NCBI RefSeq assembly: GCF_003018255.1
Contig: NZ_CP027440.1
DNA length: 64,000 bases
DNA from: Escherichia coli
GTDB taxonomy: Bacteria > Pseudomonadota > Gammaproteobacteria > Enterobacterales > Enterobacteriaceae
Strand: one strand, 5' to 3'
Position 1 is the first letter of the stretch; the number at the start of each line of letters is the position of its first letter. The position numbers were made by a program. This document shows, piece after piece, positions 36,001 to 42,000 of the stretch.

Positions 36001-39000
36001 GTTCCCGAATGAGCACTTCCTGTGAAGCGGCTGGATGCCCGAACGATTCAGGATTTTTTCAACCCGCGTCTGGTGATTCTGGCGGTTAACTTCCTCGCTG
36101 CGCTTCCGGCCCTCAGCCAGTTGCCATTCCAGCCACTCGTCGGTCGTCCGGAACGGTGCTGTAACGTGCGGTGGAACCAGACGGCGCACCCGTTCAAGAA
36201 TCCCTCCTGTCGAAATGTTTTTCATGGCTGATTACCCCCTGAAACCCGGCGGAATTTCGGTGTCCGGTTCAGAAATGTGATTCACGCAACGCAGGCTGAC
36301 TGCGCCAGCCTTCGGCAGCGCCCACGGATTTTCGAAATTCCTGTTCGGGCCAAAAAACGTCGATGCCTGCTGAACAAATTCAGTTCCCACTTTCCCGGTA
36401 GCCTCCAGGTATCTTGCGTAACGCCTCACGCCATCCAGCACGACATCCGGTGACACCCCTTCGCGTAATCTGGCCCTCCAGGCATTGAACGCGGATTTCT
36501 TCGGGTTTGACCCTGCCCGATGCGGATATTCACGCCAGACCCGTTCGAACACGTCAGGATAATCAACTCGTCCCGCAGACGGTCCCGGCATCGCCCGGGT
36601 TAACCCAATCGGCTTCCCGCTCATCGCGGAATCGGCTTCAGGCTGCTGCGGTTGGTGTTGTTGCTCCGGTTCGACGTGCAGCACCTGCTGCACACAACGC
36701 CCGGAATCTGCTTCCGGTGTCATGCCAGCTGGTCCTGGACGTTCAGTCAGAACGGGACAAGAATCCACCAGTGGGTCCGTGGCGATTTTTTCGCCATGGA
36801 CCAGAAGGGTTTTATCTCTTTCCTGTTCCTGTTCCTGTTCTTGTTCTTGGCTTGAAAGGGGCTCTGAAGGGGCTTCAATTTTCCGACATGATTCACGTCT
36901 GACATCCAGGTGGAAATCATCCTTATATCTATCATAAAAGGATGATAAAAAAGGATTTTCCAGCAACGCGGAATATTCATTTCTTACCCCAGCACAACGG
37001 TTATCGCCTGGTTTCAGCGCTTCACCAACCTGCCATGCTGCCATTTCATGCACCCATACAACCTCAGAATCATGGTCATAGCTGCAAAAACCAGCCTCGC
37101 AAGCCATTTGAAGCCCCTTAGAAGCCCCTTCAGGATCAAGTCCGGTTTCGTGAGCAATGTACAAAACAGGCAGGTAATAAAGGCCCAGCATATTGGAATG
37201 AGGCGAGGTCATCATATACAACGCCACTACCATACATTCCGGACCAGACTTCCTTAGTTTTCGCCCTGTATCGCCTAACCAGAACTGAGGTGAAATTGTT
37301 GCGTAATTACGCATAGTCCCCTCGCATACAAGATTTACTCCATACCGCAGACGGTCCCGGTATCTCCCGGGTTAACCCAATCGGCTTCAGGCTGCTGCGG
37401 TTGGTGTGACTGCACATTGGTGTGACTGCACATCTTCACAGACGGTCCCGGTATCTCCGGGTTAACCCAATCGGCTTCAGGCTGCTGCGGTTGGTGTTGT
37501 TGCTGGCGAAATTCTTCCAGATGTGGCAGAATTATTCCCGTGTATTGCTCCATGCCCTGCCTGAATATCAAATATTCATCAGGATTTGCTCAGAACGTCC
37601 GGCCCCAACCGGACGTTTTTTATTTGCATGAACGTTAATGGCATGGTTGAACGCCCGGCTGATCGGACTGATATCAGATGCCATCTGGAACGCACATAAA
37701 ATCGCCGCAATGTATCGCCAGTCGGTACGACTGACCTTCGATTCATGGCAGCCAATCATCTTCGCCAGTCCCCTTTGCGTCAGAGCTGACAGGTTGATAA
37801 GTAAATCCGTTTCAGCGCGATCGATATCGCGCTGCGACAGTTTGCTGTAACTTGTTTGTGACATTTCTTATGATTCCAAATAGTGAATAGTTAGTTGAAA
37901 GGTATGCGTGGAAACGCATATGGCCTTAGTTGGTCAGATATCTTGGGGCTCGCTTTTCAGCGACGTAGGACGAATGTCCATTGTGAAAAGAGCAGTGTTA
38001 ATTGAGCTTATCGTTGACGATCAGGATTCGCTACATTGCGTAACCATTCGGCGGTAAATTTGCCATCAGATGCATTGGCGAGAATTTCCGAATAGTTGGT
38101 TTTCATCGTGTATTCGGTGCGAGGTAACGCTCCGTTTTTAACCCACTTATGAATTGCAACATTTGACAACCCGCATAAACGGGCAGCGACTGTTTGACCA
38201 CCAACAGCTTTTACTGCGAATTGTATCGGATTCATACTGCTATCCATTAATTTAGTTAACTTCGAGTTAATGTTAACTATTAGCTGACAGTTATGTCAAC
38301 TATGTTTGATAATTAACGTATGGTTAAAAAAGATGAACTAAAAGAAGCGTTCTCAAAGAGACTACTACAGGCATTATTAGATGCAGGTGTGGGCGGACGC
38401 GGTCAGGCTAAGCGGATTCAGAATGCAATGAAACTGCGAGGCATTGATATCTCTGAACCGGGGATCTGGAAATGGCTTAATTCTGCATCAATTCCAGAAA
38501 AAACAAGTATTTTGGCACTTAGTGACTGGCTTTCCGTGAAGCCGGAGTGGTTGGAGTATGGCAGTAACGAGCCATCCGTAAAACAGCGACCTTCTATTCC
38601 AAACGAATCAGAATGGGGTTCCCTTGAAACTTGGGACAGAAATACACCACTACGAGATGATGAAGTTGAGGTGCCATATCTGAAAGACATTGAGTTTGCA
38701 TGCGGTGACGGAAGAGTTCATTGCGAAGATCATAATGGTTTTAAATTACGCTTCTCAAAAGCAACCTTGCGCCGTGTCGGAGCTAACAGTGATGGTTCTG
38801 GTGTGCTTTGTTTTCCGGCTACTGGTGATAGCATGGAACCCGTGATACCAGATGGAACAACAATCGCAGTAGACACAAACAACAAACGTATTGTTGACGG
38901 CAAACTCTACGCCATCGCACAGCCTGGTGTCGGTGATGAAAAACTGAAGCGTATAAAGCTATTGTACAGACGCCCCGGTGGAAAACTAATCATACGCAGT

Positions 39001-42000
39001 TATAACAGTGAAGAGTACCCTGACGAAGAAGCAGATACTCAAAGCGTGGAGATTATCGGAAAAGTTTTCTGGTATTCAGTTCTGCTTTAGCCCTCTCCCC
39101 CGGCCTCAGAGCCGGGTTTTTTATTAACCCAGCTAGCCAAAACTCATCTATCCTAGCTTCTATACCCCTTCATACTTGATAACCGTCGCTCACCGAACAA
39201 GCAATAATAATTAACTAAAAATCAAAAACATAGAATGCCTCCACAATAATTTTAACTTTGAGTTATTGACTAACACTAACCAACGGTTAATAATCATTTT
39301 ACCAACAGGTCACCGATAACAACGCGGTCCCAATTGGAAAGCTCTTTAAACAACGTCGAACACTCGACTACGTGGCTGCAAAGCCAGATCGCCCAACCGC
39401 ATAAGCTGTCGGGTGCAATGCCGAAGCAATCATCTCAGGGGAGGCTTCGAGATTGCATCGCCAAAGTTTATTCGGGAGAAATCTATGTCCAGAAAAACAG
39501 AATTTAAAGGCACCGCAGCTTCCCGCCGCAGAGCACACCGGGCTGAGCTTCAGAGTCTGGAGGCATCAAGCGCTGATAAACTGCACCGCCCCACACCTTC
39601 ACGGGTGTACTTACAGTGCAAACGCAAAGCCGCAATGCGAGCTGAAGTAGTCACGATAACGACATTAACCAGAAAATATGAAGGCTCTACTTGTCTTCCA
39701 AACACTGCACTTTACGCAGCTGGCTATCGCAAATCCGGAACAATAACAGCGAGGTGATTGATGACCACGCCTTCAGTTTTGCCGCAAAAATTATGGCGTC
39801 CGCTTGCAGAGATTAAAAACTTCGTTGAAAAAATGCCTGACGGCGTTCGCCTTACGGAAGTTACTAAAAAAGTTAAGACATTTGCCGAACTGTCAGGAAA
39901 GGAGAGAAACCAGCTCATAGATTTTATCGATAAACGGGAAAGCATCATTGTATTTAAGGTCAGAAAAGAAGGTTCTGGTAACGGAGTAACCTTTTTCCGC
40001 CACAAAAAATATGGATATCCCAAGCGGGAAGGAAACGTCACAATCATTAAGGACCTTCAATCAAAATTATGTACCAGATGCGGGCAGACAAAATCAGTCG
40101 ATGATTTTTATTCAGATGCCAGCAAACGTGACGGGAGAGCCATTTATTGCAAGAAGTGCGAATCTGCGATGAAACGCTCACGCAGAGAATGCAACAAATT
40201 AATTCTGCAACAACAGGAACCTGAAATGAATAACCTAAAAGCAGTTTCACCTTCACCAGAAATACTCAGAAAGCAGGCGGAAGAATTGCTGAAAGCCGCC
40301 GAAATTGCGGAGAAAAAACGCCAGGAAGATGATGTATTCAACAAAAAACTTGCGCCCTTAAAACTTGAAATTCTTCAGGCCGCCGGAAAAATGCAGCTTA
40401 AACTGGACGAATTCATCGACTGTATGGATGAAATGAATAAAGCAGTTCAGAAGCTTAAAGAGCTGACCGCCTGATATTAATAAATTGCAACTACCGGAGT
40501 TAACTATGAACGAAACAGAACTGAAGCACATTATCGCCCTGCTTCTGGAAGATGCCAGACAGGTTTATCGACTTAGCCCAAACTCCGCAACGCAGGAACG
40601 CATCCGGATGGCAGAAAAAGCGCTGAAACAGGAGAGTGAAAATAACATATCCGAAGTTAGCGCGAATGGTGAAAATGAAGCAATAGAAATAAACAGCAAT
40701 ATCAGCGACGGCGTAATAGCTTCATCCCACAAGACAATTCTCATGGGCGCACGACTTCTGGAGGTGATTACGAGTGAGCTTGAAAAGAACGGTATCAAGC
40801 CCACCCCTTGTTATTTAGAGTGTGTGTTAAATGTTATTGCTTACTCGATGTTCCGTCGGTGACAGATGAAAGTTTTCGATCAAGGAATGTTTCAAGTGCA
40901 TCGTAAATAATGGAAATCGCCCCAGACGCCTGAGTGACAACCCCGCTGCAACATCCATGTATCAATATCCTCTTTGGCGGACATCGGTTTGCCGATTGCT
41001 GATGTCCGCCCTTTTTAAAAGTGAATTTTATGATGCGGTGAATGCGGCTATGCGCACGCGGAACAGTTAAACCGACAGGATGTCACGGAAAATCATCATC
41101 CCCTGCTCCGGCGTTAATTGTTAACTGGTTAACGTCACCTGGAGGCACCAGGCACCGCATCAACAAAGTTCATTTGTGAAAATGGAGATAATTATGATTG
41201 CTCATCACTTCGGAACTGATGAAATACCACGTCAGTGCGTGACACCTGGCGATTATGTTCTTCATGAAGGCCGCACATATATCGCTTCAGCAAACAATAT
41301 TGAAAAGAGAAAACTCTATATTCGTAGCCTGACTACAAAAACATGCATTACCGACTGCATGATTAAAGTTTTCATCGGGCGCGATGGCTTACCTGTAAAA
41401 GCAGAGTAGTTGTGACGAGTAATAAAATACACCTTCCATATCTGTAACAGACAAACCGAAATAAAAACCACATTAATTATCAATCACGGGAAAATCAAAA
41501 TGAAAGAACTTGCGCAAAATGAAATTTTTTCCGAAACCAGTCCTGATGCAATAAATGAACTCAAAGAAATTGCAGAACGCATCAGTAAAATATGCAAAAA
41601 ACACAAAATCGACTTTGTATTTTCTTTTTCAGTGCTTACAGAAGTTGGAAATAACGAATATAAAGACAGTCGCTTTGTTTCCTTCGGTTTATATTGCGAA
41701 ACCACCAGCCCATATATTCATGCTGCATCTGAAATTGTCGACAGTCATATTGATCCACAAAGAATTCAGGAACTGACCCTGGCACTTCAACTTCTCAGAG
41801 AAAATGGCGAATGCAACTGCTCTGACTGCCAGCATGAAAAGAAAAAAACAACTCACAAAACAACAAACCAGGCAACCTTACACTGAAATAAAAAATCCGG
41901 CAGCGCAGGCTACCGGACTCCCCCCTGCGTCACTGTATTCGGAGAAATCAGACAAAGGGCCGCTAATTCTAATCCAGCCAGAGGTTTAAATACAATGAGC

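Follow-up and report, generated by a model that had tools for sequence, protein, structure and literature searches.

The nutR/tR1 region of phage H-19B is an experimentally characterised site that has been used as the Rho-dependent nutR/TR1 terminator (PMC1950744, PMC3526286); it goes back to Neely & Friedman 1998 (cited in PMC1950744), and its nutR contains two hairpins (PMC3526286). In VT2-Sakai (AP000422), the sequences orthologous to those considered here are annotated 'putative N-utilization leftward/rightward', with the tR1-like sequence labelled 'putative rho dependent terminator for pR transcript'. The N protein of lambda requires boxB to be closed by a U-A pair and to adopt a GNRA-like fold (PMC12027372). 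Reference boxA sequences for lambda and the rrn operons are quoted in PMC2724277.

The locus described here lies in a 64-kb stretch of Escherichia coli DNA that was analysed as a whole (the window). Between 37500 and 39800 the window matches POCJ13, a Shigella Stx1 phage, at 100% identity, and 75/02 Stx is near-identical to this prophage sequence; both have been deposited as complete phage genomes. The nut sites carry no annotation in the POCJ13 GenBank record. In Stx phages the polymerase gets to Q through N-dependent antitermination from nutR, and Q then switches on stx and the lysis genes. Getting the nut sites right is therefore important when annotating the regulatory circuit of a Shiga-toxin prophage in circulation among Shigella and E. 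coli; the practical gain is better annotation rather than new biology.

It is very probable (about 0.92) that nutL and nutR are the nut RNA elements of a POCJ13-type lambdoid Stx1 prophage and that, with its own N, they let RNA polymerase resist termination. The assignment as nut sites is based on their architecture, where they lie within the PL and PR operons, the cognate N gene, orthology with 933W/VT2-Sakai and with the H-19B nutR, and covariation in boxB.

Architecture and setting of the two nut sites

The elements of both sites and the genes and signals around them are collected in Table 1.

Table 1. Features of the nutL and nutR regions (positions in the window; RNA forms in brackets)
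Feature	Position	Strand	Basis or remark
nutL, whole (boxA, spacer hairpin, UACG, boxB)	39341..39386	+	Orthologue of annotated VT2-Sakai nutL
nutL boxA GCTCTTTAAACAA (RNA GCUCUUUAAACAA), core GCUCUUUA	39341..39353	+	
nutL spacer hairpin GTCGA-ACAC-TCGAC (RNA GUCGA-ACAC-UCGAC)	39355..39368	+	Predicted fold
nutL linker TACG (RNA UACG)	39369-39372	+	
nutL boxB TGGCT-GCAA-AGCCA (RNA UGGCU-GCAA-AGCCA)	39373..39386	+	5-bp stem, GNRA tetraloop
nutR, whole (boxA, spacer hairpin, UACG, boxB)	37950..37993	-	Homology to H-19B and VT2-Sakai
nutR boxA GCTCTTTTCACAA (RNA GCUCUUUUCACAA), core GCUCUUUU	37981..37993	-	
nutR spacer hairpin GGAC-ATTC-GTCC (RNA GGAC-AUUC-GUCC)	37968..37979	-	Predicted fold
nutR linker TACG (RNA UACG)	37967-37964	-	
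nutR boxB TCGCT-GAAA-AGCGA (RNA UCGCU-GAAA-AGCGA)	37950..37963	-	5-bp stem, GNRA tetraloop
N gene, 90 aa	39485..39757	+	Pfam PF25694 N_peptide; PHROG 271; arginine-rich motif GTAASRRRAHRAELQ
cI	38320-39090	+	S24 peptidase domain
cro-like repressor gene	38008..38247	-	PHROG 35
cII	37568..37864	-	Pfam Phage_CII, E = 1.1e-25; first gene downstream of nutR/tR1
Candidate OL operator TTAACTTTGAGTTAT	39252-39266	+	Palindrome
Candidate PL promoter TTGACT-17-AATAAT	39266-39294	+	Consensus prediction only
Candidate PR promoter TTGACA-18-TAACAT	38299-38270	-	Consensus prediction only
PR operator palindrome TTAACTTCGAGTTAA	38256-38270	-	Accompanies candidate PR
Putative tR1-like Rho-dependent terminator region	37865..37949	-	C-rich, G-poor, C/G = 2.1
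Hairpin AUGCGUUUCCACGCAU in tR1-like region	37919-37904	-	Within 37865..37949
Candidate terminator upstream of Q	29861-29842		

Consensus-type, CGCUCUU(U)A-like boxA cores (GCUCUUUA in nutL, GCUCUUUU in nutR) are each followed by ACAA. At both sites a hairpin spacer, with ACAA(Y) before it and UACG after it, separates boxA from boxB; this arrangement defines the H-19B/933W/HK97-type sub-family of nut sites. Each boxB has a short stem of 5 bp with compensatory change between sites, a U-A closing pair and a GNRA loop (GCAA in nutL, GAAA in nutR); i.e., the two features that lambda N requires are present in both, albeit with a loop of 4 nt against 5 in lambda and P22.

The first-pass annotation had proposed matching sites made of boxA (gctcttt), a short spacer hairpin, and ctacgt followed by a 5-bp stem with a GNRA-type loop. 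Each boxA was found where it had been placed, and both hairpins form part of the minimum-energy fold (ViennaRNA) at nutL and at nutR, although the spacer stem of nutR has 4 bp and not 5. The boxB stems and loops were also as described, but ctacgt is not all linker: its first c belongs to the spacer hairpin, as the final base, and its final t starts the boxB stem, which leaves UACG as the unpaired linker.

The gene calls placed nutL on the plus strand upstream of N and nutR on the minus strand between cro (PHROG 35) and cII (Phage_CII), in agreement with the earlier assignment. The N call itself was upheld by the match to N_peptide (E = 7.7e-26; score 91 bits, cut-off 27.9) and by PHROG 271, and the N-terminus of this protein, which is encoded beside nutL, carries the arginine-rich motif SRRRAHRAELQ. 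The nutL site starts approximately 40-47 nt downstream of the PL-like promoter (promoter end 39294) and is separated from N by 98 nt; the nutR boxA begins 14 nt past the cro stop codon, and 85 nt lie between the end of nutR and the cII ATG. One site is therefore in the PL transcript 5' of N and the other between cro and cII before tR1, and PL, PR and the operator palindromes are all at the expected places. A terminator-like match at 39368-39355 on the minus strand was rejected as a terminator, since it reads the opposite strand of the nutL spacer hairpin and then of boxA.

Covariation, folding and alternative explanations

Thirteen nut sites from seven phages were parsed by anchors with a script; the nutL of SPN9CC (off-pattern) and phiSTEC801 (a phi21-type site) were left out of these counts, and a MAFFT alignment of the 13 sites, in which tetraloops were misaligned with pentaloops and the spacer stems were misaligned too, was not used for pair counts. 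Pair 1 of the boxB stem was U-A, G-C, C-G or A-U and pair 2 was G-C or C-G, while pairs 3 and 4 were unchanged in all 13 sites and pair 5 was U-A in 12 and U-G in one. RNAalifold found two compensatory pairs in the tetraloop subset. The hairpin spacer with its ACAA(Y) and UACG flanks was common to the whole set, in which three unrelated stems (GGAC/GUCC, GUCGA/UCGAC and GAUUCR/UGAAUC) keep a hairpin at the same place. The nutR spacer hairpin is identical in H-19B, VT2-Sakai, mEp234, g341c, SPN9CC and Enterobacter phage MII_001. Stem covariation was also sought in 80 loci with 83-100% identical N, but the stems were invariant there (in the nutL spacer, variation was confined to the loop) and these close loci are therefore uninformative; the boxB covariation comes solely from the comparison of nutL with nutR and from the more distant phages.

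Across the family, a change of boxB type goes with a change in the N arginine-rich motif: RRRxxRAxLQ (lambda-like) is paired with GAAA, ERLKAKA (H-19B-type) with GACAA, and SRYKARRAELIAER (phi21-type) with a phi21-type boxB. The GAAA and GCAA loops seen here match the branch of 933W/VT2-Sakai, g341c and Enterobacter MII_001, and not the loops of H-19B (the GACAA pentaloop), mEp234 or SPN9CC. The GCAA loop of nutL is unusual and limited to this lineage. A strict link between it and the N changes R18H, N21E and Q25L was considered and rejected: one sister locus (L005) has a POCJ13-type N, yet a GAAA loop, which suggests that loop position 2 is tolerant. The natural GAAA and GCAA tetraloop boxBs, together with the parallel change of boxB and N motif, provide a small comparative data set on N-boxB specificity.

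It is very unlikely that these elements serve mainly in Rho loading, termination or RNA processing (as rut sites or RNase III targets) and resemble nut sites only secondarily. A C-rich, G-poor tract does directly follow nutR, Rho leaves a footprint on the H-19B nutR spacer (PMC3526286), and a long hairpin is present downstream of nutL in the N leader. However, rut and nut functions overlap in lambda and H-19B without excluding each other, and nutL has the same full architecture although the tract 3' of it is not C-rich (C/G = 0.89). The combination of boxA with a GNRA boxB is, moreover, confined to the two canonical positions, and boxB type tracks the N arginine-rich motif.

Slightly less likely again is that only one site is functional, or that both are relics in a defective prophage with a dead N system. 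The unusual GCAA loop could be read in this way, but GCAA still belongs to the GNRA loops and the near-identical N of L005 is paired with GAAA; the N ORF is intact, every conserved feature is kept at both sites, and the relatives to which the prophage is identical (POCJ13) or nearly so (75/02 Stx) are complete phage genomes.

The composite motif GCTCTTT-N(15-30)-CTACGT-NNNN-GNRA-NNNNA matched twice in the window and never in 100 shuffles, and a search for CTACGTSGCTGNAAAGCSA with up to two mismatches returned only nutL and nutR (0.03 expected). That two similar hairpin arrangements arose by chance is the least likely of these alternatives: GCTCTTT alone is unremarkable (8 found, 9.1 expected) and the individual folding z-scores are weak, but a chance origin of the composite motif is refuted by the shuffles, and the sites are conserved in approximately 80 loci, with orthologues annotated in VT2-Sakai or used experimentally in H-19B.

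The hairpins are small, with z-scores of -0.9 and -1.4, and thermodynamics alone would not support nut sites. At nutR there is a competing fold, the centroid fold, in which boxA is paired with the boxB loop and 3' arm; in the nutR of VT2-Sakai this pairing is the minimum-energy fold. An Rfam scan of 37000-40500 (E <= 10) returned four sub-threshold matches and no nut, boxA or boxB family, and is no evidence either way on the nut sites. A sub-threshold match to AgvB was observed at 37563-37621.

Proposed mechanism

By analogy with the H-19B experiments (PMC3526286, PMC1950744, PMC4499122), we infer that read-through at this locus would be N- and Nus-dependent. The steps follow the paradigm of lambda and H-19B. 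On transcription from PL or PR, the arginine-rich helix at the N-terminus of N would bind the boxB hairpin with its U-A closing pair and GNRA loop, the spacer would be engaged by NusA, and the consensus-type boxA would be bound by NusB and S10. The looped RNA-protein complex would remain with the polymerase, which could then pass the Rho-dependent tR1 just downstream of nutR and later terminators, such as the candidate upstream of Q. Read-through would open one arm, with cII, the replication genes and Q, and the opposite arm, with the recombination, kil and int genes, to expression; via Q, stx1 and the lysis genes would eventually be expressed as well.

An extruded loop base has been proposed to matter for assembly of NusA on the lambda N-boxB complex. 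In the 933W/POCJ13 branch, a genuine four-base GNRA boxB with no extruded base occurs together with a spacer that is structured and a boxA of the rrn consensus, and it is conceivable, albeit doubtful, that the antitermination complex of this branch is built differently. If the extruded base matters for NusA, the spacer hairpin might take over the contact, or there might be more reliance on NusB/S10 and boxA. A folding switch could also arise from the complementarity of the nutR boxA to the loop and 3' arm of boxB.

Comparison with described nut systems

The element order boxA-spacer-boxB and the positions relative to PL/N and cro/cII are the same in lambda. Alignment showed that the lambda sites share boxA and the boxB frame N-N-N-C-U / A-G-N-N-N with those described here; i.e., a 5-bp stem ending C-U / A-G, closed by U-A and capped by a GNRA-type loop. 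The RRRxRRAExQ-type arginine-rich motif of N is a further likeness. In contrast, the lambda spacer is unstructured and 8-9 nt long, whereas here it has a hairpin and, counting the UACG linker, spans approximately 19-24 nt. The loops here are tetraloops, whereas lambda has pentaloops (GAAAA, GAAGA) from which one base is extruded, and the lambda boxA is CGCUCUUA, compared with the rrn-like GCUCUUU(A/U) here. Trp18 of lambda N has a stacking role; when anchored on the RRR motif, the N protein here lacks a Trp at the aligned position.

The nutL core GCUCUUUA corresponds to the last 8 of the 9 bases of the E. coli rrn boxA UGCUCUUUA, and with the ACAA that follows it closely matches the rrn leader sequence UGCUCUUUAACAA (PMC2724277). 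However, in rrn leaders boxB precedes boxA and is dispensable, and there is no N protein, whereas here boxA precedes boxB beside an N gene.

In H-19B, 125 of 134 aligned positions (93%) are identical from the nutR boxA to the cII start. The spacer hairpin GGAC-AUUC-GUCC, the UACG linker and the boxB stem UCGCU/AGCGA are identical, and the tR1 region is near-identical. The boxB loop is a GACAA pentaloop in H-19B (as in P22) but a GAAA tetraloop here, and the H-19B boxA is degenerate (CGCUAUUUU) where that here is consensus-like. Neely and Friedman reportedly found in 2000 that the H-19B boxA is dispensable and that NusB and S10 are not required; the consensus boxA here may hint at the opposite. 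H-19B N is also longer, at 127 aa; its arginine-rich motif differs (SRRRERLKAKALANG), and identity is approximately 50% over the aligned parts. In the H-19B nutL no boxA core can be recognised, and the spacer stem is GAUUCG/UGAAUC.

The same nut architecture is found in 933W/VT2-Sakai, where nutR shows no difference between the start of the spacer hairpin and the end of boxB, and nutL shares the boxA, spacer stem, UACG linker and boxB stem. The differences are in the nutL boxB loop (GCAA here, GAAA in 933W/VT2-Sakai), the nutL spacer loop (ACAC here, CUC there) and the nutR boxA (UGCUCUUUUCACAA here, CGCUCUUUGUAACAA there). VT2-Sakai N is 86% identical to the N here, and DNA identity to VT2-Sakai is 92% from the nutL boxA to the N start and 95% from the nutR boxA to the cII start. 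Between the two sites, cI, cro and the operators make up an immunity region that is unrelated in 933W/VT2-Sakai, and homology starts at or near the boxA elements. The nut sites described here therefore belong to the already described H-19B/933W type, and are in this respect textbook examples of a known system.

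Anatomy and genetic setting of the nut sites

When 37000-40500 was read on both strands, every element was present that the first-pass annotation had listed in proposing nutL and nutR sites of matching architecture on opposite strands. The 'ctacgt' motif in that description occurs at both sites but does not hold as a unit, since one base belongs to each neighbouring stem; the unpaired linker is therefore UACG. The stem of the nutR spacer hairpin is 4 bp long, and pair 2 of the boxB stem has switched between the two sites from G-C to C-G, a compensatory change.

Coordinates of the nut elements and neighbouring control features
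Feature	Position	Strand	Basis or remark
nutL boxA GCTCTTTAAACAA	39341-39353	+	sequence reading
nutL spacer hairpin GTCGA-ACAC-TCGAC	39355-39368	+	sequence reading
nutL linker TACG	39369-39372	+	sequence reading
nutL boxB TGGCT-GCAA-AGCCA	39373-39386	+	sequence reading
nutR boxA GCTCTTTTCACAA	37993-37981	-	sequence reading
nutR spacer hairpin GGAC-ATTC-GTCC	37979-37968	-	sequence reading
nutR linker TACG	37967-37964	-	sequence reading
nutR boxB TCGCT-GAAA-AGCGA	37963-37950	-	sequence reading
N	39485-39757	+	Pfam N_peptide E = 7.7e-26
cI-type S24 repressor	38320-39090	+	ORF
cro-like repressor	38008-38247	-	ORF
cII	37568-37864	-	Phage_CII E = 1.1e-25
Candidate PL, sigma-70-like	39266-39294	+	at expected PL place
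Candidate PR, sigma-70-like	38299-38270	-	at expected PR place
Candidate PRM, sigma-70-like	38284-38313	+	at expected PRM place
Operator-like palindrome TTAACTTCGAGTTAA	38256-38270		flanks predicted promoters
Operator-like palindrome TTAACTTTGAGTTAT	39252-39266		flanks predicted promoters
Strong intrinsic-terminator candidate	29861-29842	-	upstream of Q
Intrinsic-terminator candidate	27136-27115	-	between Q and stx1; expected place of tR'-type terminator

The predicted PL -10 element lies 47 nt from the start of nutL boxA, and 98 nt separate the end of nutL boxB from the N ATG; on the other strand, 14 nt lie between the cro stop and nutR, and 85 nt between nutR and the cII ATG. The tract 3' of nutR is rich in C and poor in G (C/G = 2.1), as would be expected for a Rho-dependent tR1. 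Eight matches to the operator-like palindromes were counted across the window, where 1.6 would be expected, and all but two of them fell within the two control regions.

The N leader (nutL to the N start codon) folds as a whole with z = -2.5 and contains a long hairpin (GUGCAAUGCCGAAGC...GCUUCGAGAUUGCAU, 39412-39460 (+)), both arms of which are kept in VT2-Sakai and which occupies the position of lambda's RNase III-processed N-leader hairpin. Directly 3' of N, 39761-40474 (+) encodes a 237-aa product without a Pfam match that matches PHROG 2539 (unknown function; E = 1e-130), its Cys-rich central segment giving weaker matches to endonuclease VII/HNH and Lar-like families. An oop-like element (37563-37621 (+)) places a strong intrinsic terminator (stem 37592-37619, then a T-run) antisense to the cII 3' end; its Rfam match to the prophage sRNA AgvB is sub-threshold (21.8 bits, where the gathering score is 56).

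Motif statistics, folding and covariation

A composite nut pattern had two matches in the 64-kb window and none in any of 100 dinucleotide-preserving shuffles, and a degenerate 19-nt linker-plus-boxB pattern (<=2 mismatches) matched only nutL and nutR in the window. The heptamer GCTCTTT by itself was in no excess over its chance frequency there. The minimum-energy fold (ViennaRNA) contained both hairpins at each site, with ordinary folding z-scores (-0.9 and -1.4); the case for the nut sites is therefore one of motif co-occurrence, position and homology, and not of folding energy.

At nutR (37950-37993 (-)), boxA GCUCUUUU and the boxB loop plus 3' arm GAAAAGCGAGC are complementary. In the window the resulting competing fold is the centroid (-10.6 vs -11.5 kcal/mol for the minimum-energy fold); in VT2-Sakai nutR (845-905 (-) of its locus, L002) it is itself the minimum-energy fold, at -17.1 kcal/mol. 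H-19B, whose boxA is degenerate and whose loop is GACAA, lacks it.

Covariation was sought in a close set of 80 IMG/VR loci encoding N 83-100% identical to that of the window, and in five further, more distant N-family phages. Across the close set the stems were invariant and the only changes fell in the nutL spacer loop and at one base of the boxB loop, a pattern compatible with conserved structure and uninformative on pairing. All 13 sites from seven phages followed the order ACAA(Y), spacer hairpin, UACG, boxB, with a hairpin at the same position in each of three unrelated spacer stems. Among these sites boxB pair 1 was U-A (9), G-C (2), C-G (1) or A-U (1), pair 2 was G-C (4) or C-G (9), pairs 3 and 4 were invariant, and pair 5 was U-A in 12 and U-G in one. 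RNAalifold recovered boxB in the tetraloop subset with two compensatory pairs.

Nine N proteins were also aligned and their arginine-rich motifs compared with the respective boxBs. RRR(A/E)(H/R)RA(E/N/A)LQ accompanied GAAA/GCAA tetraloops (the window, VT2-Sakai, g341c and Enterobacter MII_001), RRRERLKAKALANG accompanied GACAA pentaloops (H-19B, mEp234 and SPN9CC nutR), and the phi21-like motif SRYKARRAELIAER of phiSTEC801 N accompanied the phi21-like boxB TCTCAACCTAACCGTTGAGA. Such joint change would be expected if these hairpins are N-binding sites. The phi21-type pairing in phiSTEC801-Stx1a (L087, 3330-3370) occurs within the same Pfam N family. In SPN9CC nutL (L089, 3340-3400) the spacer hairpin and UACG are of the usual kind, but boxB (GCUC-CGUCAAC-GAGC) is deviant and differs from the nutR boxB of the same phage.

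Identity and spread of the prophage

Positions 37500-39800 match Shigella phage POCJ13 (KJ603229), a record in which N is annotated and the nut sites are not, at 100% identity, and Shigella phage 75/02 Stx at 99.9%. POCJ13 carries Q, stx1A and stx1B downstream in its rightward operon, and size-matched ORFs lie at about 27973-28358 (-) (Q) and 25446-26681 (-) (stx1B and stx1A); the window is an Stx1 prophage. The POCJ13 integrase end maps to about 46366-47580, so that DNA beyond about 47580 is presumably host flank, with the final ~15 kb of the phage outside the window. Of 5426 complete E. coli genomes, 13 contain the full immunity region, nutR to nutL, and 1035 contain parts of it.

Homology to 933W/VT2-Sakai and H-19B DNA begins exactly at nutL boxA (39341) and close to nutR boxA (about 37993), while the intervening cI-cro-operator segment is unrelated to theirs; the nut sites are therefore mosaic boundaries of the immunity module. 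A direct repeat of ~60-85 bp occurs once within the replication-initiator gene (36232-37314), at 36573-36658, and twice in a small ORF and intergenic DNA between cII and that gene (37345-37407 and 37439-37497). Together with an exact 16-nt tandem (TTGGTGTGACTGCACA x2, 37401-37432), it may be iteron/origin-related or a partial gene duplication.

Comparison with characterised nut sites

In the standard lambda/H-19B model, the arginine-rich helix of N would bind boxB, NusA the spacer and NusB/S10 boxA, and the complex would remain with polymerase, which would pass tR1 and subsequent terminators and continue as far as Q. Alignment with VT2-Sakai, H-19B and lambda bore out the proposed sites. The VT2-Sakai (AP000422) features 'putative N-utilization leftward' (GGCTCTTTAAACAACGTCGACTCTCGACTACGTGGCTGAAAAGCCA) and 'putative N-utilization rightward' (CGCTCTTTGTAACAACGGACATTCGTCCTACGTCGCTGAAAAGCGA) are the orthologues of nutL and nutR; DNA identity is 92% over the interval between nutL boxA and the N start, and 95% between nutR boxA and the start of cII. 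H-19B (AF034975; nutR CGCTATTTTCACAATGGACATTCGTCCTACGTCGCTGACAAAGCGA) shares 125 of 134 positions over the latter interval, and its nutR/tR1 fragment is an experimental workhorse, serving as an N-responsive site and as a Rho-dependent terminator (PMC1950744, PMC4499122). The nutL/nutR reading is thus supported by orthology to both annotated and experimentally used sites.

The lambda sites (CGCTCTTA-spacer-GCCCTGAARAAGGGC) have in common with those of the window the boxA core, the element order and the C-U/A-G end of the boxB stem. The loop that lambda N recognises is a GNRNA pentaloop, which adopts a GNRA tetraloop fold by extruding one base, and lambda N also requires a U-A closing pair (PMC12027372); the window boxBs keep that pair around a true tetraloop, without the fifth base. 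The boxA elements of the window fit the rrn consensus UGCUCUUUA (PMC2724277) better than do those of lambda or H-19B. The sequence of the phage that carries the sites is already public. The tetraloop, the rrn-like boxA and the nutR competing fold are not new sequences, being present also in the long-sequenced 933W/VT2-Sakai group.
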